Assembly: GCA_041659465.1 (NCBI GenBank)
Contig: JBAZYD010000001.1
Location: forward strand, 4,281-68,280
Reading direction: 5' to 3'
DNA length: 64,000 bases
Source of the DNA: Candidatus Micrarchaeia archaeon
GTDB taxonomy: Archaea; Micrarchaeota; Micrarchaeia; Anstonellales; Anstonellaceae
The translations under genes and the position numbers were made by a program. Numbering within the stretch: the stretch's first letter is position 1; the number at the start of each line of letters is the position of its first letter. This document shows positions 652-64,000 of the stretch, piece by piece. The notes beneath the pieces are model-generated. The model was not told the origin of the DNA and ran no database searches. It was given only the letters and a program-made list of their open reading frames with translations.

Positions 652-1500
652 ATGAAACTGGGCAGCGTGAAGGAACTAACGCTCATGGCAAACTCCATGC
701 GGCAAGACGTGGTGCGCATGCTATTGCCCGCGGAGTCAGGGCACACCGCAGGCCCGCTTGGAATGGCGGATATTTTTTCGATACTTTTTTTCCACGAGAT
801 GGAATACAATGCATCGCAGCCGGAGTGGGAGGGGCGCGACAGGTTCGTGCTTTCAAACGGGCATATCTGCCCCATACTTTATGCCGCAATGGCGCGCGCG
901 GGCTTTTTCCCCCTAGACGAGCTGTCCACGCTTCGGAAGCTTGGGAGCAGGCTGCAGGGGCACCCGAGCCGCGCGAAGCTGCCGGGAATTGAGAATTCTT
1001 CGGGGCCGCTGGGGGAGGGCCTCGCAATCGCGTGCGGCATGGCGCTTTCAGGCAAGATGGACAAGGCGGAGTGGCGCGTGTACTGCGCGATGTCGGACGG
1101 CGAGCACCAGGAAGGGAGCACATGGGAGGCGGTGATGCTTGCAGCAAAGTACAGGCTTGACAATTTGGTGGCGATTTGCGACAGGAACTACATACAGATA
1201 GACGGCAATACCGAGGACATCATGCCGCTTGGCGACATGGCGGAAAAATACCGCGCGTTCGGCTGGCATGCGATTGATGTGGACGGGCATGACTATGCCG
1301 CGCTGATGGCTGCGCTTGACGAGGCCAGGGCCACAAAGGGAAAGCCCACCATGATAATTGCAAAGACAGTGCCGGGCAAGGGAGTGTCGTTTGCGGAAAA
1401 CAACTACAAATGGCACGGCATGGCGCCCAAGCAGGAGGAAGCGGCAAAGGCGCTTGCGGAACTGGAAGCGGAAAGGGGAAAAATAGGGCAATCAGGATGA
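652..1500 (+). CDS. tktN: Transketolase, N-terminal (thiamine-diphosphate-binding) subunit
   Basis: The motifs GHTAGPLGMADIF, SNGH and GPLGEGL are typical of the transketolase N-terminal half. Its 3' end overlaps the start of the C-terminal subunit gene by ATGA. The first in-frame ATG at 652 follows the upstream gene. Confidence 0.88.
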   Translation: MKLGSVKELTLMANSMRQDVVRMLLPAESGHTAGPLGMADIFSILFFHEMEYNASQPEWEGRDRFVLSNGHICPILYAAMARAGFFPLDELSTLRKLGSRLQGHPSRAKLPGIENSSGPLGEGLAIACGMALSGKMDKAEWRVYCAMSDGEHQEGSTWEAVMLAAKYRLDNLVAICDRNYIQIDGNTEDIMPLGDMAEKYRAFGWHAIDVDGHDYAALMAALDEARATKGKPTMIIAKTVPGKGVSFAENNYKWHGMAPKQEEAAKALAELEAERGKIGQSG

Positions 1501-3321: not shown

Positions 3322-4692
3322 ATGAAACCGGACAATGGCGCGAAAGCGCGCGCTGTTTTTGCAAAGGCGCTTCCAAGGATAACCCCCAGCAGGCGCGAGG
3401 CCGCGGAATGCTTTGCGACCGCGGCAGCGATGGCAAAAAAGCTCGAGCGCGTGCTGCCCCCGGCAGTCGAGGTGCGCCTTGCAGGCTCGCTTGCCAAGGG
3501 CACTGCCCTCGCGGGCAACAACGAGTTCGACATCTTCATGCTTTTCCCGCGCCATTACTCCCACCATGAGATGACCATGATGGGCATGCAGTATGCCAGG
3601 CGCGCGTTCGCAGGCATGCGCGTAGAGGCGCGCTATGCGGAGCACCCATACCTGCAGGTGTTTTACCGGGACTACCATGCGGACATCGTGCCGGCATACA
3701 GGATAGAGCGCATCTCGGAGCGCGGCTCGTCGGTCGACCGCTCGCAGCTGCACACGGCGTACATCAATGCCAAGTTGGACGCGGCTGCGAAGGGGGACGT
3801 CAGGCTGCTCAAGCGCTTCATGAAGAACTTCGGCATTTACGGCGCGGAGCTGCGCGTCGAGGGGTTCTCGGGCTACCTTTGCGAGCTCCTCATCGTGCAC
3901 CACGGCTCGCTTTTTTCGCTCATGTCCGCAGTTTCGCAGTGGCATGCTCCGGTCGTGGACACCGAGAAGCACCTGAGCGAGGACGCTGCAAGGCGGAAGT
4001 TCCCGCAGGCGCCCCTCATCGTGGTGGACCCCACCGACCCGAACAGGAATGTCGCCGCGGTGGTGGCGCACACGTCGCTCTCGCGGTTCATATTCGAGTG
4101 CCGCCGCTTCCTCGCCGCGCCATCCGAGAAATTCTTCTTCGCCAAGAAAACAGTGAGGAGCCCGCGGGAAATCGCCAGGGCGATGAAGGAGCGGGGGACA
4201 ATGTGCCTTGCCGTGCGCTTTCCCGCGCCCAAAGTGGTGCCGGACGTGCTTTGGCCGCAGCTTAGGAAGACCGCGCAGGCGCTTTCCAGGAGGCTGTCCG
4301 AGCAGGGCTTTTCGGTGTTCGGCTCCTACCATTGGAGCGACGGGGCGGAGTGCGCCGTGCTTTTCGAGATTGACAGGTGGGAGCTCCCCGCGGTGGCAAA
4401 GGCGATTGGCCCGTCCGTGCGGTTTGCGCGCGACTGCGAGTCTTTCGTGAAGAAGCACAAGTCGGCGCTCAACATGCACATAGAGCACGACAGGATGGTG
4501 GCGGTGGAGATCCGCAAGGTGAGGCAGGCGCGCGCCGCGCTTTTGCATGCATGCCGCCACCCGCACGGCGCAGGCATACCCGGGAACATGGAGCATGCGA
4601 TGGCGCGCTGCGAGGTTGCCGGGGCGGAAAGGCTGCTTTCGAAAAAGTACGCCGAGTTCCTGTCCGACTATTTCTTCGCGAAAATCGCCTGA
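3322..4692 (+). CDS. cca: CCA-adding enzyme (tRNA nucleotidyltransferase, archaeal class I)
   Basis: GSLAKGTAL...DIFMLFP is the class-I nucleotidyltransferase G-S/D-x-D motif. Length (~456 aa) and overall layout match archaeal Cca. Confidence 0.8.
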   Translation: MKPDNGAKARAVFAKALPRITPSRREAAECFATAAAMAKKLERVLPPAVEVRLAGSLAKGTALAGNNEFDIFMLFPRHYSHHEMTMMGMQYARRAFAGMRVEARYAEHPYLQVFYRDYHADIVPAYRIERISERGSSVDRSQLHTAYINAKLDAAAKGDVRLLKRFMKNFGIYGAELRVEGFSGYLCELLIVHHGSLFSLMSAVSQWHAPVVDTEKHLSEDAARRKFPQAPLIVVDPTDPNRNVAAVVAHTSLSRFIFECRRFLAAPSEKFFFAKKTVRSPREIARAMKERGTMCLAVRFPAPKVVPDVLWPQLRKTAQALSRRLSEQGFSVFGSYHWSDGAECAVLFEIDRWELPAVAKAIGPSVRFARDCESFVKKHKSALNMHIEHDRMVAVEIRKVRQARAALLHACRHPHGAGIPGNMEHAMARCEVAGAERLLSKKYAEFLSDYFFAKIA

Positions 4693-4747: not shown

Positions 4748-5587
4748 ATGAGATTTTTTGCGTTCGTTCTGGCATTTGCGGCATTTGCGCTTGGCATGGC
4801 ATATGCGTACGGGAGCCCCTGCGCGGACGGGACGCCATACGGGCAGTGCTCCAGCGCCAACCCTGGCAGCTGGTGCACAGGGATTGCGCAATCCCCGAGC
4901 CTGGGGCTGCTGCTTTCCAAGTGCCCCTGCTCCAAATACAACGGCTATGTCCAGGAAGGGACCGGCGATGACGCGACCTGCGTGCAGGCAAAGTGCGCTG
5001 ACGGGACGATGAACGGGCAATGCTCGGCAGTGACCAAGCCAAAGGTGTGCGTGGGCGGAACGACCTATTCCGACAACGCCACGAAGTGCGGCTGCCCGGC
5101 AGGCAAGAGGGCGGCTGCAGGCGGGATATTCTGCGAGTTCATACCATGCACGGACGGGGACGTGAGCGTGCCTGAAGGGACGTGCTCCGCAAAGAAGCAG
5201 AAGAAGTGCGTGGGAGGGGTGCTGGTGGACAAGGCATCCGAATGCGGCTGCGCGACAGGCCAGACGCTGCAGGGCGAAACCTGCGGCGTGGTGTGCCTGG
5301 ACGGCACAAAGGACGGCGCGTGCTCCGCCACCAAGCCGAAGGAGTGCACGAACGGATACCTGCTTGACAACGCGGTGAAATGCGGCTGCCCCGAAGGGCT
5401 TAGCGCAGTGGGCAAGCAGTGCACCAACTCGATATTGGGGAGCACGAACGGCGCCGACCTGCTGGGCGGCGCCGGCAATGGCACGGGCGTGGGCGCAGGG
5501 GGTTCAAGCGCGCTTTCATGCTGCTGCCTGCCGACCGCGCTCATAGGCATCATAGGCGGGTTTGCGTTCTTCAGGAAGAATGGGTAG
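4748..5587 (+). CDS. Secreted cysteine-rich repeat protein with a C-terminal membrane anchor
   Basis: N-terminal signal peptide MRFFAFVLAFAAFALGMA. About four ~45-aa modules of the form C-x-DGT-x-x-GQCS...KPK-x-C-x-GG...KCGCP-x-G. The C-terminus reads ...SALSCCCLPTALIGIIGGFAFFRKNG, a hydrophobic helix followed by a basic tail. Confidence 0.65.
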   Translation: MRFFAFVLAFAAFALGMAYAYGSPCADGTPYGQCSSANPGSWCTGIAQSPSLGLLLSKCPCSKYNGYVQEGTGDDATCVQAKCADGTMNGQCSAVTKPKVCVGGTTYSDNATKCGCPAGKRAAAGGIFCEFIPCTDGDVSVPEGTCSAKKQKKCVGGVLVDKASECGCATGQTLQGETCGVVCLDGTKDGACSATKPKECTNGYLLDNAVKCGCPEGLSAVGKQCTNSILGSTNGADLLGGAGNGTGVGAGGSSALSCCCLPTALIGIIGGFAFFRKNG

Positions 5588-5786
5588 GCTGCCTCTTTCT
5601 GTTTTTCTTTTCCTGTTTTTTACCCGTTTTGTTTTTCCCTTTTTGCTTCTCTCTTTCCCTGCATTGCCTTTTCCTTTCTTGCCTTTCTTTCCCTGCTTTC
5701 CATTCCGTTTTGTTTTTATCTTTCTTGCTTTTCCTGCTTTTTATTCTGCATCCTCGGCTTTGCTTTTTTCCCCGTCGGCAGGCGCA
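5588..5786 (+). repeat. ~190-bp polypyrimidine (C/T) tract on the + strand, between convergent genes
   Basis: More than 85% C+T across ~190 bp (ctttctgtttttcttttcctgtttttta...ctttcttgcttttcctgc), inside an otherwise ~60% GC, balanced-composition genome. Confidence 0.9.
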
Positions 5787-6958
5787 TCGCCCTCGCTGAT
5801 TTTCCTTTTCAGGGAGTAGGGCTTGCCGTTGGAGTCGGTCCCCACGAGGTCCAGCTCAAGCCTTGAGATGGCCGCCTTGTCCGCCGGCGAAAAGGCAAGG
5901 CGGATGCCCTGCTCCCCGCCCTTTATCTTGGTGCGCGAGGACAGGGATGCTTTTTTTCCTGCGCCTTCCTGCGAAAAGTACGTGACGGACGATGCCGTCT
6001 CCAGGATGCCTCCGCTCTCGCCCGTGTTCTTGAAGGAAAGCAGCAGCGCCCCTGACTCGAATGCTGCGCTGCCCCGCCTGTATTGCAGGCCCATGGTGGA
6101 CTTGACCTGGGAGGACAGGGAAACCGGGTTGCTCTGCGCCGCCTGCCTGTCCATATAGATTGCGTTTTCCTTCAGGATGGCGGTGAACGACAGCATCCCG
6201 CGCGCAGCGTCCTCCGGCAGGTCGAACGCCACCTTGATTTTTGATTCCCCCTCAGGCTCGATTGTGCAGGTGCGCGGCTCGGCTTTCGCGGCAATTGTGC
6301 TTTTCTGGGAGTCCAGTATGGTGGATTCGAGCCCGACCGCCATGGGCGATGTGGACGCGTTCTTCCCGACCAGCAAGACCTGGACCTGCTTCTGCCCGAC
6401 TGACAGGGAAACCGGCAGGCCTGCGGCCACTGCAAGCGAAAGGCTTGACTGCTCGACGGGCTTTGGAAGGGGCTTTGGCTTTTTCTTCATGTCGGTTTTC
6501 CCGCGCTGCAGCAGGCGCACGGAATAGGCGGCCTGCTCGTCCTTTTTCTTCTGCGCCGGGGCGGGAAACTGCTTTTTCTTCCTGCCCACAGGTGTGAATA
6601 TCTGCAATTCCTCGCCCATCACCCTGTTCTTGGGCTTGTCATTACCCCACCTTCTTTTTTTTCTGAGCTGCTCGGACTCCACGCGCATCTTGGCGACCTG
6701 CAGCAGGTCCTGCCTGCGCTCCTCGCCCGTGCGCTCTTCGCGCCCGCGCTGCAGCCTTGCGGCATCGCGCGCAAGATAGCCCTGGTAGAGCAGGTGCTTC
6801 CTCTCGTCGGCCTGCCTTTGGCGCCGCTTTTCCTCCTCCATGCGCTTTTTCATCTCCTCCTGCCTGAGCTGGTTGTAGCATGTCATGCAGTAGTCGTGCC
6901 CGCCGAGGTCCGCGCCCGACTCGTATGTTGTCCTGCACTTGTCGCACCGCCTTGTCAT
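5741..6958 (-). CDS. Hypothetical protein with an N-terminal zinc ribbon, a highly charged coiled region and a C-terminal globular domain
   Basis: The N-terminus reads MTRRCDKCRT...HDYCMTCYN (C-x2-C...C-x2-C). A K/R/E-rich segment follows. Alternative TTG start at 6979. Confidence 0.55.
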   Translation of the reverse strand: MTRRCDKCRTTYESGADLGGHDYCMTCYNQLRQEEMKKRMEEEKRRQRQADERKHLLYQGYLARDAARLQRGREERTGEERRQDLLQVAKMRVESEQLRKKRRWGNDKPKNRVMGEELQIFTPVGRKKKQFPAPAQKKKDEQAAYSVRLLQRGKTDMKKKPKPLPKPVEQSSLSLAVAAGLPVSLSVGQKQVQVLLVGKNASTSPMAVGLESTILDSQKSTIAAKAEPRTCTIEPEGESKIKVAFDLPEDAARGMLSFTAILKENAIYMDRQAAQSNPVSLSSQVKSTMGLQYRRGSAAFESGALLLSFKNTGESGGILETASSVTYFSQEGAGKKASLSSRTKIKGGEQGIRLAFSPADKAAISRLELDLVGTDSNGKPYSLKRKISEGDAPADGEKSKAEDAE

Positions 6959-7380
6959 GGCAGGGGCATGCGCGCCCAAGGATTAAAAAACGCGCATGTC
7001 CCAAAAGGGCGCACAGGGGCGTTGGCTCTGCTTTTTATATATTTTGCCTTCTATCAACCGTCAGAGTCCCGCCATAACTCAACCTGGTAGAGTGCTTGGC
7101 TGTAGTAAAACAACGGCCGTCGGCGATTGTGCTGGCAGTCATCAAGATGTTGTGTGTTCAAGAACCCTTTTTGCTCCTCCCGCAAGCGCTCGTCGCAAAA
7201 AGCGCTCCCGGAAAAGCAAATGTGCGAAAAGGCGTTGAACAAATCACACTGGCGGGATTTTATATTCTTCCTTTAAACAGAAAGGGAAGCGCGCGCCAAA
7301 TCCTCGTGGATTTGTCGATCCAGGCGAACGGCGATCCGTTCGCCTGCTCCACCCATTTTGCCCGCAGGCAAAATGGCTGT

Positions 7381-7452
7381 GCCTCGATGGTGTAGTGGTT
7401 AGCATCCCAGATTGTCGATCTGGTGACCCGGGTTCGAATCCCGGTCGGGGCG
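7381..7452 (+). tRNA. tRNA-Asp (anticodon GTC)
   Basis: Manually folded cloverleaf. Acceptor stem GCCTCGA/TCGGGGC. Anticodon arm CCAGA-TTGTCGA-TCTGG. T-arm CCGGG-TTCGAAT-CCCGG. CCA is not encoded. Confidence 0.85.
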
Positions 7453-7510
7453 TTCCAGGCTTTTTTTCATTATTTTACGGCGTAGAGATTGCAGTGGGTT
7501 CGAATCCCCG

Positions 7511-7596
7511 TTTGGGCGTGGATTTACAAGACCATGTGCATTTTGCGCAGCAAAATGCATCAGACATCGAACTGAGGTTCGATGCTGAACGCCCAG
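7511..7596 (+). ncRNA. Structured element, copy 1 (two hairpins: GCATTTTGC-GCA-GCAAAATGC and CATCGAAC-TGAG-GTTCGATG), preceded by a degenerate tRNA 3'-like fragment (GGGTTCGAATCCCC)
   Basis: The core ACCATGTGCATTTTGC...GCAAAATGCATCAGACATC-hairpin-GATGCTGAACGC is shared with copy 2 at 9240-9338. The second hairpin shows compensatory changes between the copies. Confidence 0.5.
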
Positions 7597-7700
7597 CCAG
7601 ACTATTTTAATTTTACATCTGCAACAGTGCAACAGGATTATTTAATACATATACATACATTTTTAAACACTTGCATGCATATCGAAATAGAGGAGAGACA

Positions 7701-9053
7701 ATGCAGAAGATTAGTGTACGCGAGAAAATATCATCTGAGCAAGCAATTCGGCACCCGTGGCAAACTGCACGGAAATACAACAAATTGGCCAATGAAAATA
7801 CACAATTAAAGGTGCAACTGAAACGAGATGCGACAAAGCCTTCCAAAATGTCCCCCAACTGGGCATTTTGGTACCCTCAGAGGACTGCACGGATAATCAA
7901 CAGCCTAATTGAAGAACAGAGCTTGCTAAAAGAAAAGATTGCGGAACAAACGTTCCAGTCTGTCCCTAAGAGTGAGCCCATATCTGATATGACTATCGTG
8001 AAAGATGCCACCCCTCAAAACGTTTTGAAAAATGTTGTGCCCGAAGGAATGACCCCTCACGAACAATGGGCCCATCTTTTAGGTTGGCGTATGCCTACTG
8101 TAAATCTCGAGAGCATGAAACTGCTTGCCTCGGGGGATACTAGGCTATCCACAGAAGAAATAATCGCCCTTTACACTGGCTGGCGCATTTGCGATGCCAT
8201 ACCTGATAAGGAAAAGGCACGGAGAATTGTGGAAAATGCCAATTCCTGGTTGCCCAAGATAAATCAGCAGAAAATCAGCGAGAATAGCCAGATAGCTTAC
8301 TTGATGGCAGCCATGCTCACTCTTCGGGATGCAAATGCAGTCAAATCGAATTTTAATAACTACGTGCCAGTATCTGACCAGCTATTTGTCACTATGGAAG
8401 TTGGAACCACTTTTTACGAGGCAAACATGATAAGTGGTGGCAAATATTTCATATCAAGAGACATCCGAACCAGCCAATTGTGGGCTTTTGAGCTTCCGGA
8501 AAGATATTTCGGACCTGACGGAAACGAGATTGACATTGTTAAAGAAATCAGTGGAAAGCAAAAATCTGACATATCGGCAGTCATGACAACGCCGCTTGGC
8601 AATGTAAAGGGAATAAATGCACGGGCAATAAAGACAGAGGATCTCCAAAAACTAGGCCAGAACCCGGGCGCATGCGTATATGTTCTGGACATTGACCCGT
8701 CGGCTTGGCGGACGTTCATTGTAGATGAGAGAAACAGCGAGGCTACTGGATGCAGCATCCAATATGATGAAAATGGAAGGCTCACCCACTACGAAGGAGA
8801 AACAGGTGGCTCTTTGTCATCTCCCTTCTATATGCAATTATCATACAGAAGTGTTAGCGCTAATAATCCTCGACCGAGCTGGCTCGGACTTCTTGTGGCA
8901 GGGAAGCATTATGATAATTATTACGCTCACGAAACTGCAGTTAAGAGGTCACGGGTATCGGACAAGTTTATTTTTTCAGCCGCTCACCCGCAGTCATTGC
9001 CCATGGACGTAATCATTGATACCGGAAAACTCAGCCGGAGCCGCTCAGACTGA
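7701..9053 (+). CDS. Hypothetical protein (orphan, low-GC gene)
   Basis: 450-aa ORF with much lower GC than its surroundings. A GGAGG-like RBS sits before the ATG at 7701. No recognisable motifs. Confidence 0.55.
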   Translation: MQKISVREKISSEQAIRHPWQTARKYNKLANENTQLKVQLKRDATKPSKMSPNWAFWYPQRTARIINSLIEEQSLLKEKIAEQTFQSVPKSEPISDMTIVKDATPQNVLKNVVPEGMTPHEQWAHLLGWRMPTVNLESMKLLASGDTRLSTEEIIALYTGWRICDAIPDKEKARRIVENANSWLPKINQQKISENSQIAYLMAAMLTLRDANAVKSNFNNYVPVSDQLFVTMEVGTTFYEANMISGGKYFISRDIRTSQLWAFELPERYFGPDGNEIDIVKEISGKQKSDISAVMTTPLGNVKGINARAIKTEDLQKLGQNPGACVYVLDIDPSAWRTFIVDERNSEATGCSIQYDENGRLTHYEGETGGSLSSPFYMQLSYRSVSANNPRPSWLGLLVAGKHYDNYYAHETAVKRSRVSDKFIFSAAHPQSLPMDVIIDTGKLSRSRSD

Positions 9054-9239
9054 TGGAATGCGCAAGCTAGGCAATTCAAAGCCATCTTATTGCGCGCGCG
9101 ACAATCATAACGCGGACGGAAGTTCCGGGAACGTTGGCGGGCAACCACTGTTTTGAACCAAAATTTCCTAGGAAATGCACTGTGTGTCCGGCCAAGCGCA
9201 GCATTTCCGCTTGGAAGCCGTTTTTTCCTCGACGTGGGA

Positions 9240-9338
9240 ATTTGGGCGTTAGGTCGCCCGGACCATGTGCATTTTGCTGCGCAAAATGCATCAGACATCT
9301 TCGTTGCGACGAAGATGCTGAACGCACGGTCGGGGCGT
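9240..9338 (+). ncRNA. Structured element, copy 2 (GCATTTTGC-TGC-GCAAAATGC and CATCTTCGT-TGCG-ACGAAGATG hairpins), ending in a 13-nt copy of the tRNA-Asp 3' end (CGGTCGGGGCGTT)
   Basis: Diverged direct repeat of 7511-7596 with covarying stems. Its 3' flank duplicates nt 7442-7454 of tRNA-Asp. Confidence 0.5.
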
Positions 9339-9415
9339 TGGCTAAATGGTTAGGCTTTGAAATGCCAACGTCTGCTGGGCACTCTTTTTTATATGTTCTT
9401 TTTGCTTGTTAGCGC

Positions 9416-10198
9416 ATGCCAAAAGCCATTGTTTTCGACCTGGACGGGGTGGTATACCTGGGAGCGCAGGGGATTCCCGGCGTTGCAGCCGAGATTGCGC
9501 GGCTGCAGGAAAAGACAACGGTGCTTTTCCTCACCAACAACACGACAAAGGGAAGGATAGAGTATGTGCGCCACCTCGAGCGCTTCGGCATCAAGGCTAA
9601 TTCAAAGGATGTGATGACCTCGGCGTACGGATGCGCCTGCTACCTGGAGGACAAGTACGGCAGGGGCAGAAAAGTGCTTGTCATCGGGGAGTCGGGCCTG
9701 CGCTACGAGCTTGAGGGGGAGGCGATGGCTGAAATCGTGGAGGAAGGGGCGGAGTTTGTGGTGTGCGGCCTGGACAGGCAGCTCACATATGACAAGCTGG
9801 ACAAGGCGCTGCACAGCCTGGATGCGGGCGCTGCATTCATTCTTGCCAATTCCGACCCCACATTGCCGCGCGAGCATGGGGCATCGCCTGGCTCGGGCGC
9901 GATTGCGGCGTCGCTCATTTACGCAAGCGGAAGGAAGCCCGACGTGACAATAGGCAAGCCGTCGGCGTATCTCATCAACAAGCTGCTCCGGATGCATGGG
10001 ATTGCCGCGAAGGACGCTGTTTTTGTCGGCGACAGGCTGGACATTGACATCAGGATGGCGAACAAGGCAGGCATGAAATCCGTGCTTGTGCTTACAGGAG
10101 TTGCGAAAAAATCCGACCTGAAGCGCGCGCCAAAAGGCGACAAGCCGGACATTGTGGTAGCATCGGCCGCAGAGGTCGGCAAGGCGCTGGGGATTTGA
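9416..10198 (+). CDS. HAD-superfamily hydrolase, subfamily IIA (NagD / p-nitrophenyl-phosphatase-like)
   Basis: HAD motif I (FDLDGVVY), a TNNT motif II-like segment, and VGDRLDIDI (motif IV). Confidence 0.8.
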   Translation: MPKAIVFDLDGVVYLGAQGIPGVAAEIARLQEKTTVLFLTNNTTKGRIEYVRHLERFGIKANSKDVMTSAYGCACYLEDKYGRGRKVLVIGESGLRYELEGEAMAEIVEEGAEFVVCGLDRQLTYDKLDKALHSLDAGAAFILANSDPTLPREHGASPGSGAIAASLIYASGRKPDVTIGKPSAYLINKLLRMHGIAAKDAVFVGDRLDIDIRMANKAGMKSVLVLTGVAKKSDLKRAPKGDKPDIVVASAAEVGKALGI

Positions 10199-38048: not shown

Positions 38049-38298
38049 CAAGCAGCAGCGCCAATGGCTAGAACTAGTCTTCTTCTGAATCCTCGGACTC
38101 ATCCCATTGCTTGTCCTCGCGCCAGGGGAACATGAAACCTTGCTGGGGGGAATGGTTTAAAACGGTTTCTAAAAACGCCTGATAGCCGGTGCCGGCGGGA
38201 GCGCGAAGGCGAGCGGGATGGTTGAGAAAGATTGTAAAGCTGAATGGCTGACGAGGTGGTTTATTCTTACGCCCCGACCGTGCGTGGGACTTGATGCC

Positions 38299-38910
38299 CT
38301 ATGCCTCAGCACGCACCTCTGACTTCTGCTTCTTTTGGGCATTCTTGATGCTCACTATTTCTGCAACAACGACGCCCACCATCGGATTAGAGTTCGCATA
38401 GAGGTAGATTTGCCTTTTTGTTTCATTTTGCCAAGTTTCATACAACTTTGGCAAACCTTCTTCTGTAAGAATAGCAACTGTTAGATTGAAGCTTCCAGTA
38501 GAGTATTCTCGCATATCTACTGCAAAAATACCCTGACATTTTTTGAGCTTGTAGTCAGAATAGAGATGAGGGAGACTATCGAGGCCAAACGCTTGTGTGC
38601 CAAGAAACTCTATCCCTGTAAAATTTTCAATAGGGACGCGTTTGCCCATAGAATATTTGTAGTTGAGAGAACGGCTAATGAGATGAGTTTCGCCAGACTT
38701 GTGGCGTGAAAGGTGAGAATCACCGTTGCGTATGTTGTGGGTGAAATATACGTCTCTATTACGAGTAATAATAACTGCACCGGCAGAGTAAGCTTTGTTC
38801 TCACCAAGAGCAACTATTTCAATCCTTATTTGTCGTGGATTTTGGCTCATACGGTTATCCTCCCCATAAAGACACAGAGAAGGGAAGGTTTTTACGGGTT
38901 TTGAACGCAA
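38299..38910 (-). CDS. Hypothetical protein (low-GC island)
   Basis: 203-aa ORF in a ~45% GC region. No recognisable motif. Confidence 0.45.
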   Translation of the reverse strand: MRSKPVKTFPSLCLYGEDNRMSQNPRQIRIEIVALGENKAYSAGAVIITRNRDVYFTHNIRNGDSHLSRHKSGETHLISRSLNYKYSMGKRVPIENFTGIEFLGTQAFGLDSLPHLYSDYKLKKCQGIFAVDMREYSTGSFNLTVAILTEEGLPKLYETWQNETKRQIYLYANSNPMVGVVVAEIVSIKNAQKKQKSEVRAEA

Positions 38911-38917
38911 TCAGCGT

Positions 38918-39460
38918 TTGAGGGCGTGTATGGTTGGTTTGGCTCCTGAAATTGTCATTACTATTTCTTCTGGCTTCTTATGCGGAGGATTCATTCTATT
39001 TCAAGTAGTAATATCTGGCGATTTTACAAAACGCTTTAAAGTGTTTAATTTGGCTGCTCAAAAAGAGATAAACAAGGGATATAGTGGAATAATTACATCT
39101 TTGTCAAAGCTGAAGAATGCACCGATTGAAGACAAGGTACGAAAATTGGAAGCTGCGACTGAGATACTATACATAATTCCAGATTTGCAGAACCAGTTGC
39201 TTGAAGTTGGAAAGAAAACAGTCTGGGCATATCTTCTTTTTTTAGCGGCGCTATTATCAGGCATTATTCAGTTGACAGCTTACATCACTTTAGACCCTGC
39301 TATCCCGTTCTGGTGCCTCATCTTAGGAATCTTGTATAGTGCCACGCTCGGTAAGGATCTTTTTGACCTCAACGCCACAATGATGAAATATGAATCTGGG
39401 AAAACGATGAAGCAAACGCTAAAGGATATTTTGGCTGAACTCGCAGAGGAGGAAGAATAA
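38918..39460 (+). CDS. Hypothetical membrane protein (low-GC island)
   Basis: Three to four predicted TM helices. Orphan. Confidence 0.45.
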   Translation: MRACMVGLAPEIVITISSGFLCGGFILFQVVISGDFTKRFKVFNLAAQKEINKGYSGIITSLSKLKNAPIEDKVRKLEAATEILYIIPDLQNQLLEVGKKTVWAYLLFLAALLSGIIQLTAYITLDPAIPFWCLILGILYSATLGKDLFDLNATMMKYESGKTMKQTLKDILAELAEEEE

Positions 39461-39477
39461 CTACTTGGTGATTTTGC

Positions 39478-40482
39478 ATGGCTGGAAAGAAAAAGCAAAG
39501 CAAGCCAAAACCCGCAAGACAGATGCCGCAAGTTCCACCTGCCACTCCAACAACTGAACCAATCCCCGAATATCAAAATATACTTCAAAATATACTCAAT
39601 AGCTTGCAAGCAATGGCACCTGACAAAAAAAACAGCCGGATGGATAGAGAGATTCAATTTGCAAATATCTACATGGTTACTGGGAGCCTATTGTTTCTTG
39701 CGTTTATTTCAGCTCTGACGATTCCAGCCCAAAAAGATTCGAGATGGGTTTACAATTTTCATCAAATAGCATACTTAATGTATGGAACCTTTCCTGTTGC
39801 ATTACTATCACTATATCTTGGTTTTAAACACCTATCAAATGCGGAAGAGATTGAAAAAAAGATTAGAGACCATAAAAGTTTTTATGAGAAATTCCCAGAT
39901 GCAATCGTTCTTTTTTGGAACTTGTTAGTAACCGCGGCTGTTATTTTCATTATTGTGGTTTGTGTATTTCTTGTATTAACTGTGGTTAGTTTATTGCTGT
40001 CGATGCTCGCCGAATTTTTAATGTCCCCTGGTTTTAATTTTTCTATATCTTTAACTTCGATATTAACATCAATTGAGGCATATTCCAAAGACTTTGTGGT
40101 GTATTTCTTTCAAATATTCATCACACTTGTTGTATTGGGCGGAGTCACTATTGTAGCTGTTATTCCGGCTATTATTGGACTCGCGGTAATCCATTTCGGT
40201 TCAGGCCTATTAGAAGAAGTTGCATCAATTAAGCAAGGTGAACTTATGGAATTAGTGGTGTTTATTGTTGGCATTGTGATTCTATTGCCAGCAATAGGTA
40301 ATCTATTGGGTCTTCATGATTGGGGGAGTTGGATAAATCCAAATAATGTTGTCTCATTCGTATTTTTTCTAAATCTTGATGACCCATATCATTTGACAGT
40401 TATTGGACTGATAGTTAGTCTAACGATTATGGTTATTGCTGGCGTTCACTCAAGAGCCGAATTAAAAACAGACCCAATATAA
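39478..40482 (+). CDS. Hypothetical polytopic membrane protein (low-GC island)
   Basis: A Lys/Pro-rich N-terminus followed by at least seven hydrophobic helices. Confidence 0.5.
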   Translation: MAGKKKQSKPKPARQMPQVPPATPTTEPIPEYQNILQNILNSLQAMAPDKKNSRMDREIQFANIYMVTGSLLFLAFISALTIPAQKDSRWVYNFHQIAYLMYGTFPVALLSLYLGFKHLSNAEEIEKKIRDHKSFYEKFPDAIVLFWNLLVTAAVIFIIVVCVFLVLTVVSLLLSMLAEFLMSPGFNFSISLTSILTSIEAYSKDFVVYFFQIFITLVVLGGVTIVAVIPAIIGLAVIHFGSGLLEEVASIKQGELMELVVFIVGIVILLPAIGNLLGLHDWGSWINPNNVVSFVFFLNLDDPYHLTVIGLIVSLTIMVIAGVHSRAELKTDPI

Positions 40483-40495
40483 GCCAAACATTTTT

Positions 40496-40939
40496 TTAAA
40501 CCGATTTCGGCGCAGGTGTTTGCTCATTTTTTGATTCCTTGTAAGTCAGAGTTAACTTGTAGTGGATAGTGTTCACACACCTACGGCCTATTTTTCTCCC
40601 CTTGGGCGTGCCTTCGTCTCCATGGCACACTATAAAACCCTCCTTTTCAGTTTGCTTGGAACCTGTCATCGCGCTGATTGCGAAGTCGATTTCATATCCT
40701 CCACGACGACAAGACGGATTACTACACCGTAAGAGTCCCCCTCGTTCTTTGATGGAAACTTGGCGGTCATATTTACGTTTTTTTTCCTCTTCGGATTGAT
40801 ATTGTTCATAAGTTCCATAGCCAGTTTCGCGATATTCGAGTATCGCATCTTCTAGCGCTGGGAATGCTTTATCAAATGTAGTTAACTCTCCAAAAACTCT
40901 CATGCTCCTATCCATAGGTTCTCCCATAAAGACCCCCAT
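40496..40939 (-). CDS. Hypothetical protein with a Cys cluster (CSNPSC...CHGDEG...C) (low-GC island)
   Basis: 147-aa ORF with a possible zinc-binding arrangement. Confidence 0.4.
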   Translation of the reverse strand: MGVFMGEPMDRSMRVFGELTTFDKAFPALEDAILEYRETGYGTYEQYQSEEEKKRKYDRQVSIKERGGLLRCSNPSCRRGGYEIDFAISAMTGSKQTEKEGFIVCHGDEGTPKGRKIGRRCVNTIHYKLTLTYKESKNEQTPAPKSV

Positions 40940-40944
40940 ATTTG

Positions 40945-41568
40945 CTACCTTGGCTCTCTAATTAAACTTCTTTCCAATATCTTTGTATAGCTCAGAAACA
41001 TCAATAAAATAATAAAGAAGCCGGAAACAAATCCATCGACTAAAATATTGGAATTGTAAGTAATAGCGATGACGAAGAAAAGGAAGATTCCGCCCCATAT
41101 AGATAGGGACATTCTTTTTGAGTTACTAGAATCTAGAGGGTCGTTTTGACTGAGCAATTTGGAGATATATGCATCTAGTTTTTTCACAGCTCTCGTAGAA
41201 GAGGCTATCTTGAACTGTTTATGTACAAATTTATGTCTCATTTTTGCATATATGAGCCCTTGGGCTGGAATAAATGGGATTAATTCTAATAAAATCCAAA
41301 TCAAGGTATATATCAACACCATCGAATGGATGGCAGAACTTGAAGCGGACGGGTCACCCGCCCACGCTCCTTGAAGTTTAGAGAGCGCATCAACCACAAG
41401 TAGTATTATGCCAAGAACAGCAACGAAAACCCCCATTTGCTGATAGGTAGAGTCAGTGAGAAGATTTGTAGTGAAGTCGCCTTGAGAAAGAAGAGCTTCA
41501 AAAGCATTCTTGTCCTTTGGCATCTTTAAAGATTGAGTTTGACCTCTCTTTGCTTTTGTTTTAGCCAT
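40945..41568 (-). CDS. Hypothetical membrane protein (low-GC island)
   Basis: Four predicted TM helices and a basic N-terminus. Confidence 0.45.
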   Translation of the reverse strand: MAKTKAKRGQTQSLKMPKDKNAFEALLSQGDFTTNLLTDSTYQQMGVFVAVLGIILLVVDALSKLQGAWAGDPSASSSAIHSMVLIYTLIWILLELIPFIPAQGLIYAKMRHKFVHKQFKIASSTRAVKKLDAYISKLLSQNDPLDSSNSKRMSLSIWGGIFLFFVIAITYNSNILVDGFVSGFFIILLMFLSYTKILERSLIREPR

Positions 41569-41696
41569 TTACTCTCCCTTCTGCGTGTGGGCTTCCGAAC
41601 CATAAAAACCTTCCCTATGCGAGCTGGCAGCCATGCCACCGAGCAATATTTGTCCCTACCTTTACGGCGAGAAGATAGCTTTTTAACGGCTTATGT

Positions 41697-42062
41697 GTGA
41701 TGGGGCATGGAGGTCATTTTATGGCGGATGAAAAAAGAATTGAGATAGTAGCCGCTCCGAAAGATTTTTTCGCAGTGGTGTGCATAGAGGAAGATACTGA
41801 CGATGGAAAAAAAGTAATGGATTATGAAATTCGCCCTGTCCTGTTTTTCAGATGGGAATGTGTTGAAGAATATTCCAAAGTAGACGAAAGTGAATACATA
41901 CCGATTCTGTTGGTGAACAACCGCGTAGTTTCCGAACCAGCGTCAAATGAAGCGGTTAGTTTTTTCGGGAGTTATGAGAAATGTAAAACAGAAGTTGCCC
42001 AGCTCTATGCAAATGCAGTAAAGGAAGAAGAGTCCGAGACTGTTTCTTCCCCTTCCGATTAA
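41697..42062 (+). CDS. Hypothetical acidic protein (low-GC island)
   Basis: 121-aa ORF with no recognisable motif. Confidence 0.4.
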   Translation: MMGHGGHFMADEKRIEIVAAPKDFFAVVCIEEDTDDGKKVMDYEIRPVLFFRWECVEEYSKVDESEYIPILLVNNRVVSEPASNEAVSFFGSYEKCKTEVAQLYANAVKEEESETVSSPSD

Positions 42063-42130
42063 CCCGTCACAGACCAAAGCAGGCAAACACCGCCTCAAGC
42101 AAGAAAAAAGAGCTGGAGATGCCAGACTTG

Positions 42131-53407: not shown

Positions 53408-53503
53408 GCGGATGTAGTATAACCTGGCTAGTATTTTGGCCTTCCATAATTTGGTTCTGCTTGAAGAAAGTCAAAGGTCCGGGTTCAAATCCCGGCATCC
53501 GCA
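53408..53503 (+). tRNA. tRNA-Gly (anticodon TCC) with a ~22-nt intron after anticodon-loop position 37
   Basis: Acceptor GCGGATG/CATCCGC. D-stem GTAT/GTAT with G.U pairs. Anticodon arm TTGGC-CTTCCAT. T-arm CCGGG-TTCAAAT-CCCGG. Total 96 nt versus ~74 expected. Confidence 0.7.
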
Positions 53504-61997: not shown

Positions 61998-62405
61998 TTA
62001 AACGTCGAGAAGTATCCTGATTGTCCAGCCTTCCTTGTCTTTTTTCACCATAAGCTCATGGTAGGTGACAGCTTTTACCGTGTCGCGCGGCTGCTTCTTT
62101 TCCCCGAATGCCTCGATTTTTACAGAATGGCGGGCGGCATCGTATTCCGTCACTTTCGCACGGGAGAAAATCAGCTCGCCTGTGTCCATGTAGGCAAGCA
62201 TATCTGCAAGCGCCTGCACGGTGAGCTCCTCGATGTTGTGCGCGGCTACTGAAAATGTCGCGCGCTCGCTTTCCCCTGCCGAGCCGAAAACGGAAAACAT
62301 GGCGTGCGCGGAATTCTCAAGCGCCTCCTCGTATGACTTGCCGTATGCCTCGAACATTATGTCGGCGGTGTGCTCCAGGAAACGGTACTTTTCTTTCTGC
62401 ATCAT
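61998..62405 (-). CDS. Archease
   Basis: The EHTADI motif near the N-terminus. ~135 aa. Confidence 0.82.
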   Translation of the reverse strand: MMQKEKYRFLEHTADIMFEAYGKSYEEALENSAHAMFSVFGSAGESERATFSVAAHNIEELTVQALADMLAYMDTGELIFSRAKVTEYDAARHSVKIEAFGEKKQPRDTVKAVTYHELMVKKDKEGWTIRILLDV

Positions 62406-62497
62406 ATCACAAACAGGAATGGAAGAAAAGGACAAATTTCAAGAGAAATTTGCCCGCATTCGGAAATTCGATAGAATTCACGAATACAATAAAAAAA

Positions 62498-63031
62498 TCA
62501 AAACGCCTTTTCACGGTTGATGGTGATTTTTGACACATCTATCAACCGCACGATGTTCAATGTCCCATTTTCTTCCTTTATATAAATCACTTTGGGAGAT
62601 ATGTCCTTGCGCTCCTTGTTGCTGTCAAATGCGGCTATGAGCGGCTTGTTCATGCTATCATCAGCAGGGATGAGAAGGCCTGTCACGCTGCTGCCGTCCT
62701 TGGTTTTTACCGTGGCATTGGTGACGCCGGGGGTTATTTTGTTCATGTCGATTATTTTTCCGAAGCCTACAACGGAAACATCCCACCCTGTAAAGCCAAC
62801 TGACGTCTGCGCATATATGTCCTTTCTGGGGGTGATTTCGTTCACCTGGCCCATGGTATAGTAGTTCCCCCTTTCGCCAAATAGCGGTTTTGCATTAATC
62901 TGGACGAGCACCAAGTCGTTTTTGGAAATGCCCTCCCTTTTCACCGCATTCCCTACGTTGTCTTCCACGGCAACCTTGACTTTTGTCACTTGGCAAACAA
63001 AGACCATTCCATCACCATTTGGCTTATGCAT
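62498..63031 (-). CDS. Hypothetical protein (lower-GC gene)
   Basis: 177-aa ORF with no motif. Confidence 0.45.
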   Translation of the reverse strand: MHKPNGDGMVFVCQVTKVKVAVEDNVGNAVKREGISKNDLVLVQINAKPLFGERGNYYTMGQVNEITPRKDIYAQTSVGFTGWDVSVVGFGKIIDMNKITPGVTNATVKTKDGSSVTGLLIPADDSMNKPLIAAFDSNKERKDISPKVIYIKEENGTLNIVRLIDVSKITINREKAF

Positions 63032-63113
63032 CTAAAAAATTATAAACGGCATAGCATTTGCATTGCTATAAAATGAGGGAAAAAACCGGGGAAATGAAAG
63101 GAAAAATGAAAAA

Positions 63114-63371
63114 TCAGGAAATATCGACTTCGGTGCCTATCGCCTGGCCGGGCAGGCCCTTGTCGAAGCGCGCGAGCACCGCGCCGGAGTTGCCGTGCGC
63201 CTTGGATATCTTGCCCACGATTTCCTTGCCGGTCGCGGTTTTCCAGCACACGCGCTTGCCGATGACGCCGTTTGCAGACGCCCTGTCGGCAACGCCGTCT
63301 ATTTTCACGACAAACTGGTTGGTGTATGCAGTGTGGACGCCGCGCCTGTTGCCTGAGAGAATGCCTTTCAT
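63114..63371 (-). CDS. rpl35ae: 50S ribosomal protein L35Ae (eL33)
   Basis: The ~85-aa product MKGILSGNRRGVHTAYTNQFVVKIDGV...GKRVCW...HGNSGAVLARF is typical of L35Ae. Confidence 0.85.
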   Translation of the reverse strand: MKGILSGNRRGVHTAYTNQFVVKIDGVADRASANGVIGKRVCWKTATGKEIVGKISKAHGNSGAVLARFDKGLPGQAIGTEVDIS

Positions 63372-63430
63372 TGTAAAAACCTCCTGATAATGCCCCCGAC
63401 GGAGCATGTCATCTATTGGGGCAAGCCTAT

Positions 63431-64000
63431 TTAAACTCTGCGCCGCGCGCAGGCAAAGGCGAAAAGCAGGAGCGGGACGGCGATGAGCGAGGGGAGGCAG
63501 GGAATGGCGGGCGGCTGCCCCACAGGCGGAGGCGGGGAGGTGGAATTCCCGGCCGAGGATGCCTTGGCTGAGATTTCCGCATCAAGCGCGTTGCCCATTT
63601 CAGAAAGCGCATCGCTTGCCGAGGATATCCTGGAAAGCGTGAGCGGGGCGCTGTAGTTTGCCTTGAGCGAGGCGAGCTGCGAAAGGTAGCTGCCTGCGGA
63701 CGGCTTGCCAATCAGCCAGGCGCTGCTTTGCACCTTGGATGAAAAGCCGTCCATGGCAAGGAGGAGCGAGGAGTAGCGCTTGGCGTCCGAGGCGATTGCC
63801 GATGCTGCGCCGCTGGAAACTTCGTCGAACTGCGCGCGGAGAGCGAGCGCTGGCCTGTATTTGCCCTGGCTTGACAGGTTTTGCGAAAGCGCCGAGATGT
63901 TCTCAAGCGCCGAAATCATGGGCGCGATGGAAGGGTCTTTCACGTTTTTTGCAAGCGCGGTGCTGTTCGCCTTGAGGTTGCGGATGCTGTTTTGCATCCT
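63431..64000 (-). CDS. Secreted Ser/Ala-rich surface protein, N-terminus beyond the window. The C-terminus is P-rich followed by CLPS + TM helix + RRRV
   Basis: The ORF is open to the window edge. C-terminus ...PPPPVGQPPAIPCLPSLIAVPLLLFAFACARRRV. Confidence 0.55.
   Translation of the reverse strand, partial: RMQNSIRNLKANSTALAKNVKDPSIAPMISALENISALSQNLSSQGKYRPALALRAQFDEVSSGAASAIASDAKRYSSLLLAMDGFSSKVQSSAWLIGKPSAGSYLSQLASLKANYSAPLTLSRISSASDALSEMGNALDAEISAKASSAGNSTSPPPPVGQPPAIPCLPSLIAVPLLLFAFACARRRV

Follow-up and report, generated by a model that had tools for sequence, protein, structure and literature searches.

Among the integrative elements that target tRNA genes in Archaea are those with tyrosine integrases of the SSV or pNOB8 type. 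In bacteria, cis-mobilisable elements (CIMEs) and tandem accretion at the 3' ends of tRNA genes are part of the biology of ICEs (integrative and conjugative elements) and IMEs (integrative and mobilisable elements), and a CIME keeps attL and attR and lacks the genes for integration and transfer (PMC5704250). Integron arrays and clusters of attC sites lacking an integrase (CALINs) have been reported in Archaea as well, in a text that leaves the Micrarchaeota unmentioned (PMC9668308). Here, a locus related in outline to all of these is described in a 64,000-nt stretch of a Micrarchaeota chromosome (contig JBAZYD010000001.1, hereafter the window), between a tRNA-Asp gene and a gene for a HAD-family hydrolase. 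Comparison with relatives shows that this interval is a variable cassette slot, which in the window genome is occupied by a single gene (approximately 7601-9161) that was acquired horizontally and has a promoter of its own. The locus is a real gene-acquisition hotspot and not a classical integrated virus or plasmid. Its closest functional counterpart is a CIME with accretion at a tRNA 3' end, and its closest architectural counterpart an integron cassette array or CALIN.

The slot and its contents comprise the following features, in window coordinates:

7380-7453, plus strand: tRNA-Asp(GTC), called by ARAGORN and matched by Rfam at 7381-7452 (63.9 bits).
7456-7600, plus strand: left repeat (LR), found by alignment with 9190-9400; covariance-model match of 93.1 bits.
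7514-7594, plus strand: left copy of a structured element termed U, resting on a fold z-score of -4.2, a covariance model and a covariation count.
7654-7674, plus strand: putative promoter block ACATACATTTTTAAACACTTG, with the TATA-like TTTTTAAA at 7660-7667, conserved together with the open reading frame (ORF) in the homologue-bearing loci L003 and L004.
7701-9053, plus strand: cassette gene of 450 aa, with an ATG start.
9218-9340, plus strand: right repeat (RR); covariance-model match of 65.1 bits.
9416-10198, plus strand: HAD-family hydrolase gene (Pfam Hydrolase_6, Hydrolase_like and Hydrolase).

The 3' end of tRNA-Asp is the left anchor of the slot, and the HAD gene is its conserved neighbour on the right. 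A first-pass annotation of this DNA, made from the sequence alone, had described an intact tRNA-Asp followed by DNA of foreign composition, and ARAGORN, Rfam and the guanine plus cytosine (GC) profile all bear this out, the segment lying directly 3' of the tRNA gene. GC content is 40-47% throughout 7450-9200, and foreign composition starts no more than about 50 nt past the end of tRNA-Asp (7453). The 450-aa ORF was also correctly placed and correctly described as far below the background in GC (45.6%, against a window mean of 56.5% and flanks of about 58-62%); at third codon positions (GC3) the fraction is 0.47, compared to 0.72 in the HAD gene. It is the only conserved ORF in the segment, and its start at 7701 is supported by the conservation of the N-terminus among homologues. 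The promoter assignment of ACATACATTTTTAAACACTTG follows from the archaeal TATA consensus and is to that extent provisional.

With the HAD protein as query, eight syntenic loci were recovered from GTDB genomes and mapped by blastn. L010 keeps the tRNA-Tyr/tRNA-Asp block and the HAD gene; the interval is filled by an unrelated ORF of 541 aa, which runs on the other strand and has a J domain at its C-terminus. This ORF is flanked by LR and RR in a simpler hairpin form, with the LR-specific and RR-specific tails unchanged in type. In L012, the slot holds a 464-aa ORF. The order in the metagenomic L019 is tRNA-Asp end, trailer, LR, a ParE toxin and a DUF7557 protein, RR and HAD. In L016, an RR-type tail is joined straight to a trailer and LR, followed by a 462-aa ORF and then by an RR-type repeat, a junction whose layout indicates tandem cassettes. 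Loci without a cassette between the tRNA block and HAD were also found (L011 and L014); there, the block of promoter, tRNA-Tyr and tRNA-Asp (7030-7454 in the window) has the opposite orientation with respect to HAD, at 3817-4162 in L011 and at 608-967 in L014. The comparison with related genomes proposed in the first-pass annotation could be made, and the result that would have spoken against an integrated element, the same gene at the same position with native composition in relatives, did not appear: orthologous loci carry other cassettes or none. The cassettes of the five genomes are mutually unrelated, measure 0.7-1.8 kb and contain one or two genes each. Every one is below its flanks in GC (for instance, 45% compared to 61% in L010), and their orientation varies among genomes.

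The frame around these cassettes is more constant than their contents. A right repeat ending ACGCACGG(T/C)CGGGGCG, together with a left repeat, frames the unrelated cassettes of L010 and L019, and L016 has an LR-type arm and tail along with an RR-type arm whose tail is more diverged. Because the same frames enclose unrelated cassettes in relatives, the repeats belong to the slot and not to the 450-aa gene. Since LR and RR frame other cassettes in L010 and L019, and similar repeats are present in L016, the duplication predates the present cassette and is a standing feature of the slot. The first-pass annotation had taken the duplicated tRNA end as a possible footprint of integration of this particular gene, an interpretation that does not survive the finding of the same tail around other cassettes. 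Its suggestion of a decayed element fares no better, as a decayed prophage is unlikely when five genomes each have a different short insert of one or two genes.

The sequence that first drew attention to the locus is the 13-mer CGGTCGGGGCGTT, which consists of the tRNA 3' end plus two bases and occurs exactly at 7442-7454 and 9327-9339, with a third, one-mismatch copy at 38268-38280 on the minus strand. The first-pass annotation had reported the exact copy with coordinates one base off and had missed the longer repeat to which it belongs. The match is not a chance occurrence: the expectation for this fixed pattern is 0.10 matches in the window, and the three observed were not equalled in any of 100 shuffles. 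The 13-mer forms the 3' tail of the longer direct repeat, LR and RR, which measures about 120-145 nt. LR consists of a T-run trailer, ACGGCGTAGAG, a degenerate T-arm and 3' end of tRNA-Asp (7496-7519), the U element and an LR-specific tail, ACGCCCAGCC. The degenerate 3'-end copy, GGGTTCGAATCCCCGTTTGGGCGT, is 88% identical to the last 24 nt at 7430-7453; it had been recognised in the first-pass annotation and placed slightly too far left, at about 7494. In RR, a T-run is followed by CGACGTGGGAA and TTTGGGCGT, then by the U element (9244-9327) and finally by the tail ACGCACGGTCGGGGCGTT with the 13-mer.

The order of parts is the same in both repeats: a T-run, CG(A/G)CGT(A/G)G(A/G)GA, TTTGGGCGT and a structured core ending in GCTGAACGC. 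The first hairpin of the core is identical in LR and RR save for the loop (TGCATTTTGC-NNN-GCAAAATGCA), whereas the stem sequence of the second is wholly different and its pairing is kept (CATCGAAC/GTTCGATG in LR, CATCTTCGT/ACGAAGATG in RR). A 39-nt pattern describing the core occurs in only two places in the window, LR and RR, and in no shuffle, and the folding of the two cores is much better than that of shuffled sequence (z-scores of -4.2 and -4.7, respectively). A reading of the degenerate T-arm plus U as a permuted or split tRNA was rejected, as no D-arm or 5' half follows. Separately, GGGGCGTTGGCT occurs at 7016-7027, left of the tRNA block, and at 9332-9343, at the end of RR, with a TATA-like box after each.

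The U element has a consensus of 84 positions with four helices in a cloverleaf-like arrangement. In the left copy, the stem GGGCGT/ACGCCC closes the structure, which also has a small arm and two hairpins, A (TGCATTTTGC-GCA-GCAAAATGCA) and B (CATCGAAC-TGAG-GTTCGATG). Seven more U loci with a conserved core were found by metagenome scan, in addition to the syntenic genome loci L013 and L014. A covariance model built from five copies recovers 13 strong copies, scoring 35-107 bits, in Micrarchaeota genomes and metagenomes. Across these 13 copies, 93.6% of pair cells are paired and compensatory change is seen in 16 of the 28 pairs; hairpin B is 100% paired, with covariation in six of its eight pairs. 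None of 500 shuffles reached the observed values, and slid controls gave 29-46% pairing. By our reading of the maps, about nine of these 13 are neighbours of tRNA-Asp, of a remnant of its 3' end or of HAD, and U occurs singly in L013, L014, L020 and L022. The presence of G-U pairs and the much weaker scores of the reverse strand suggest that the strand as written is the functional one. Additionally, the combination of U core with LR-specific or RR-specific arm differs from genome to genome, a mosaic that suggests exchange within U and would equally fit gene conversion or homologous exchange.

No Rfam family matches U: only tRNAs pass in the window, and a permissive scan of 6900-9500 gave nothing credible. 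The U pattern is also absent from IMG/VR. A known ribozyme, a C/D-box or H/ACA small RNA and a tRNA-like gene were each considered and set aside, as there is no Rfam match and no C/D or ACA-box architecture is visible by eye. U is a structured, covarying element family that was undescribed before, in that no RNA or mobile-element catalogue searched holds it.

Several related arrangements were observed near tRNA-Asp in relatives. After the 3' end of tRNA-Asp, L010 (3775-3862), L012 (4320-4412) and L014 (524-608) have two or three hairpins in an array of 68-77 nt; next come a repeat of the final 13 tRNA nucleotides and then the T-run terminator. The arrays differ in sequence and keep their hairpins, and the U model matches one of them weakly. 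In L010, perfect acceptor pairing is restored by the second 13-nt copy only. Candidate explanations of the array are an intron of non-canonical type, a trailer that is processed and a miniature insertion. In L019, a third copy of U, inverted and partial, lies between RR and the start of HAD (1080-1179, minus strand).

The right edge of the slot and one distant site in the window share features with this frame:

9162-9264, plus strand: conserved non-coding block at the right cassette edge, with the palindrome motif AATTTCCTAGGAAATGCACTGTGTGTCCGG (9162-9192) and a T-run.
L010 5730-5832, L016 2025-2125, and L019 260-300 and 900-990: the palindrome block in relatives, with the perfect palindrome TTTCCTAGGAAA.
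38269-38285, minus strand: third copy of the RR tail, ACGCACGGTCGGGGCGT, identical at 17 of 17 bases and found by blastn and pattern search.

Comparison with L010 puts the right edge of variable DNA at 9161/9162. From there, 9162-9264 is 94% identical to its counterpart in L010, compared to approximately 75% for the adjacent HAD gene. The cassette edges of L010, L016 and L019 show the palindrome-bearing motif (AATTTCCTAGGAAATGCAC...) again, with two occurrences in L019, and the block could serve as a site for protein binding or recombination. A structured RNA in 9128-9245 was also considered and rejected, with RNAalifold giving only -4 kcal/mol and little covariation; in appearance the block is closer to a palindrome bound by protein. 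Contig ends from the Logan collection fall at similar positions. In one public run, the contig boundaries are a start at 7424, an end at 9191 (that of L001) and the start of the next contig at 9269. If these contigs are k=31 de Bruijn unitigs, as is assumed here, the branch nodes would be the 31-mers 7423-7453, the last in the tRNA, and 9162-9192, the first of the shared block. Such breaks would be consistent with alternative slot contents coexisting in one population.

The 17-nt RR tail on the minus strand sits exactly at the edge of a second low-GC island (approximately 38.3-42.1 kb, 37-41% GC). This island contains six small ORFs, none with a Pfam match. The recurrence of the tail argues for a putative recombination-related boundary that has been used more than once in this genome. 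The island (about 38286-42100) lies between two look-alikes of M20-family peptidases, and several of its ORFs resemble membrane proteins by inspection.

Only two close homologues of the cassette gene were found among 5.8 billion proteins, with 52-59% identity, both in metagenome-assembled genomes (MAGs) of Micrarchaeota. A profile search of 1.8 billion representatives added six remote members, one from Candidatus Gugararchaeum and the others from unidentified metagenome contigs. The family therefore has about eight detectable relatives, all from Micrarchaeota or unidentified metagenome contigs. It is absent from IMG/VR and BFVD, and no viral context was found; the suggestion in the first-pass annotation that the gene might turn up on viral or plasmid contigs thus led to nothing in IMG/VR. 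The two close homologues (L003 and L004) come from closely related genomes, whose ribosomal-protein operons are 88% identical, and yet the gene is at different loci in the two. The DNA conserved between them and the window comprises the promoter, the ORF and a few bases past the stop codon (7645-9061), and similarity between L003 and L004 extends approximately 70 nt beyond this. LR and RR never lie within the DNA that is conserved between the window gene and its homologues elsewhere. The L003 homologue has a GC content of 48% within a 58% background and adjoins an intron-bearing tRNA (identified by Rfam, with the anticodon Thr(UGU) read from the sequence). It is bracketed by an 11-nt duplicate of the tRNA-Thr 3' end, for which 0.06 matches are expected. 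These comparisons show that the gene is mobile between loci. In L004 (1-9600), the homologue abuts a defence-type island, with a type I restriction-modification system and a Schlafen/AlbA_2 protein, that is inserted beside rpoN; the left flank (9620-9710) has several TTATGAGCA repeats in both orientations.

The encoded protein had been called an orphan without a recognisable domain. The absence of a domain match holds for searches of Pfam, PHROGs, PADLOC and PDB sequences, and it is the description as an orphan that has to be given up in view of its relatives. The protein has no transmembrane segment and is predicted to be soluble. Two N-terminal repeats of approximately 40 aa (W-x-P-x3-AR...N-L...EN..LK) precede a conserved C-terminal alpha/beta domain of approximately 320 aa, and no catalytic-type residue is invariant across the nine family members. 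AlphaFold2 (AF2) gave a mean confidence score (pLDDT) of 36 from a 3-sequence alignment and a confident fold only once the remote homologues were added. With that predicted fold, Foldseek found nothing significant in BFVD or the PDB, and the C-terminal domain has at most a weak similarity to AvpA (PDB 5ioo), a variable protein of diversity-generating retroelements with the C-type lectin fold. The AvpA match raised the idea of a diversity-generating retroelement target, which was dismissed because the ORF has no template-repeat copy in the window: no part of it occurs a second time in the 64 kb. The protein is probably non-enzymatic and, with N-terminal repeats that are coiled-coil-like, most likely a binding or adaptor protein, a functional assignment made with low confidence. 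Pfam, PHROG and PADLOC searches of the ORF found no integrase in the segment, in agreement with the first-pass annotation. A scan for sigma-70 promoters and intrinsic terminators was uninformative, its models being unsuited to an archaeon.

These features can be set against those of the systems introduced above. As in CIMEs, foreign DNA is located at a tRNA 3' end between att-like direct repeats that contain the tRNA end and does not encode its own integration or transfer functions; tandem arrays sharing att sites have a counterpart in the L016 junction, and mobilisation in trans is presumed. In contrast to CIMEs, the host is a DPANN archaeon, the cassettes are 0.7-1.8 kb long with one or two genes, and the repeats of about 120-145 nt contain a four-helix element. 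Further, no cognate integrase-bearing element was found, and there is no sign that the cassettes derive from a decayed ICE or IME. The slot resembles integrons and CALINs in its small, mostly one-gene cassettes, which include a toxin-antitoxin pair, in site-like elements of conserved structure and variable sequence, and in the presence of different cassettes at the same position among relatives; in those systems too a neighbouring integrase may be absent. However, an attC site forms one imperfect hairpin that carries R''/L''/L'/R' boxes along with extrahelical bases, whereas U has four helices and an invariant core (TGCATTTT/AAAATGCATCAGACA, GCTGAACGC), and by eye no canonical RYYYAAC...GTTRRRY arrangement is present in it. 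The slot is anchored at a tRNA gene instead of attI and intI, and there are one or two cassettes per locus. The window cassette has its own conserved promoter, and orientation varies, unlike in a promoterless array of one orientation. No IntI with an adjacent attI is located in or beside the slot, the rest of the window and genome not having been scanned systematically. Lastly, the tRNA target, the duplication of a tRNA 3' segment at the far boundary and the foreign composition are all shared with SSV-type and pNOB8-type elements, but the slot has neither an integrase nor split-integrase halves, its insert is 5 to 20 times smaller, and its frame outlasts its contents. On defining features, the slot belongs neither to the CIMEs nor to the integrons and CALINs.

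The interpretation favoured here, and held to be reasonably probable, is that of a tRNA-linked, integrase-less cassette slot that holds a foreign single-gene cassette and is turned over by recombination between the frame repeats. Cassettes would enter and leave by recombination of U with U, or at the tRNA 3'-end cores, and an empty slot would be a single U beside tRNA-Asp or HAD. Because no cassette encodes a recombinase, this enzyme would have to be supplied in trans. The locus would accordingly behave as a cis-mobilisable islet that lacks an integrase and sits at the 3' end of a tRNA gene, or as one position of an integron-like array, and not as a decayed provirus. A more far-reaching proposal, considered rather unlikely, is that U is the recombination site of an undescribed archaeal cassette-capture system at tRNA-Asp, in which a trans-acting recombinase recognises the folded 84-nt site as IntI does attC. 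By its action, one-gene or two-gene cassettes, such as toxin-antitoxin pairs and genes for chaperone-like and binding proteins, would be inserted, cut out and reshuffled. Alternatively, U would be a new small structured RNA near tRNA-Asp, cut by the broad-specificity splicing endonuclease of this lineage. Several observations weigh against turnover between frame repeats. The recombination step is itself deduced, with neither an excised circle nor an empty-site read observed, and no recombinase was identified in the cassette, the remainder of the 64-kb window not having been searched systematically for one. The covariation in U was counted on a model-fitted alignment that includes copies of closely related lineages (L014/L020/L022 and L018/L021). 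The L012 cassette is without the LR/RR frame, and no U element accompanies the gene in L003 or L004. Linkage of the gene family to tRNAs is frequent, not universal. As a family-wide rule, tRNA adjacency was ruled out: L004 and the more distant members L023 and L026 are not beside tRNAs, and the Gugararchaeum homologue (L006), which sits after a tRNA-Thr(GGU), has no detectable 3'-end duplicate. Additionally, the 94% identity of 9162-9264 to L010 could reflect homologous exchange.

That last point leads to a less probable explanation, namely that DNA taken up from related Micrarchaeota swaps the gene by recombining through the conserved flanks, which are the tRNA block with LR on one side and the palindrome block with RR and HAD on the other. 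No site-specific recombinase would be involved, and the repeats would be conserved intergenic elements. The excess identity of the right-edge block over the next gene is as expected after recent exchange, and the mosaics of U cores and arms, the lack of an integrase and flanks conserved over hundreds of bases all agree with such replacement. It leaves unexplained, however, why LR and RR are direct repeats of one another that end in tRNA 3'-end sequence, why the edge of a second island, 30 kb away, has the identical 17-nt RR tail, and why the L003 homologue, at an unrelated locus, lies between a tRNA-Thr 3' end and its duplicate; moreover, the RR-trailer-LR tandem junction of L016 looks like accretion. 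The tRNA-end cores, this tandem junction and the second island are the reasons why a site-specific process is given about twice the weight of pure homologous replacement. Integration of a larger virus or plasmid by its own integrase at the tRNA-Asp 3' end, followed by decay to one gene with the 13-nt repeat as attR, is much more doubtful. The layout of tRNA, foreign DNA and partial 3'-end repeat is the classical one, and the extra degenerate 3'-end copy at 7496-7519 would suggest repeated events. Against such a remnant, five genomes have different inserts in the same or a similar frame, the RR tail is common to L010 and L019 and predates the cassette, the gene family is missing from viral sequence and structure collections (IMG/VR and BFVD), and the segment contains no integrase fragment. 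Two further explanations are very hard to credit. One is a non-autonomous transposon of the IS200/IS605-like, PATE type, with hairpin ends recognised on single-stranded DNA by a Y1 transposase acting in trans and the ORF as passenger; this would account for hairpin ends in direct orientation on one strand and for structure that is kept while stem sequence varies. Yet the hairpins remain at the tRNA-Asp/HAD slot while homologues of the gene move without U, U also occurs singly (L013, L014, L020 and L022), no tnpA or tnpB was seen nearby, and ends that include tRNA-derived sequence are atypical of the IS200/IS605 family. The other, as poorly placed, is a native, vertically inherited gene of atypical composition, with the repeats being chance matches or ordinary intergenic hairpins. 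Distant family members in stable chromosomal contexts without tRNAs are in keeping with it, but orthologous loci lack the gene, its GC3 is far from native (0.47 compared to 0.72), chance falls far short of explaining the 13-mer and the 39-nt core, and L003 and L004 carry the gene at different loci.

Gene gain and loss are poorly understood in DPANN archaea, with their tiny genomes, and the locus is a defined, conserved hotspot at which single foreign genes are exchanged. If U were a recombination site, the locus would represent a new design of archaeal system, integron-like or CIME-like, and under the cassette-capture proposal the genome-reduced Micrarchaeota symbionts would have a dedicated locus for sampling genes. 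The conservative yield is a new family of covarying structured elements, a new protein family whose predicted fold is confident and lacks a convincing structural counterpart, and a clean case of cassette turnover at a Micrarchaeota tRNA gene.

The assignment of the window to the Micrarchaeota agrees with its gene content. The nearest relatives of its genes are in MAGs labelled Candidatus Micrarchaeota or Micrarchaeia, and archaeal signs include a class I CCA-adding enzyme, tRNAs with introns and TATA-type promoter boxes. Left of the slot, tRNA-Asp forms a block with one other tRNA gene:

7068-7257, plus strand: tRNA-Tyr(GTA), interrupted by two introns; once spliced in silico, it forms a perfect cloverleaf of 74 nt, called as tRNA-Tyr(gta) by ARAGORN.

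The introns of tRNA-Tyr are 35 nt long (7106-7140, at position 37/38) and 81 nt long (7160-7240, within the T-loop), and the unspliced gene was missed by both ARAGORN and Rfam. Its region is kept in L010, L012, L011 and L014. A tRNA-Tyr with two introns agrees with the heavily disrupted tRNAs of ARMAN-2 (PMC3239211). A second tRNA with an intron, also missed by ARAGORN, is located at 53408-53503 on the plus strand (Rfam, 52.2 bits).

Hairpins are also found within and around these tRNA genes. The leader of tRNA-Asp (7297-7379, plus strand) contains three perfect hairpins in series, one with an ATTTTG/CAAAAT motif as in U, and these give rise to a spurious, sub-threshold match to ROSE (32.9 bits, against a gathering score of 45). 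In L010, tRNA-Asp (3661-3784) has a 50-nt intron in the anticodon loop, and a hairpin array (3380-3540) expands the first tRNA-Tyr intron to approximately 120 nt. Hairpin modules therefore appear to build up in tRNA introns and tRNA flanks alike. Elsewhere in the window, further dips in composition are seen at 5400-6000 (GC 0.51-0.53, with an AT skew reaching -0.59) and at 62000-63500 (GC 0.48-0.50).

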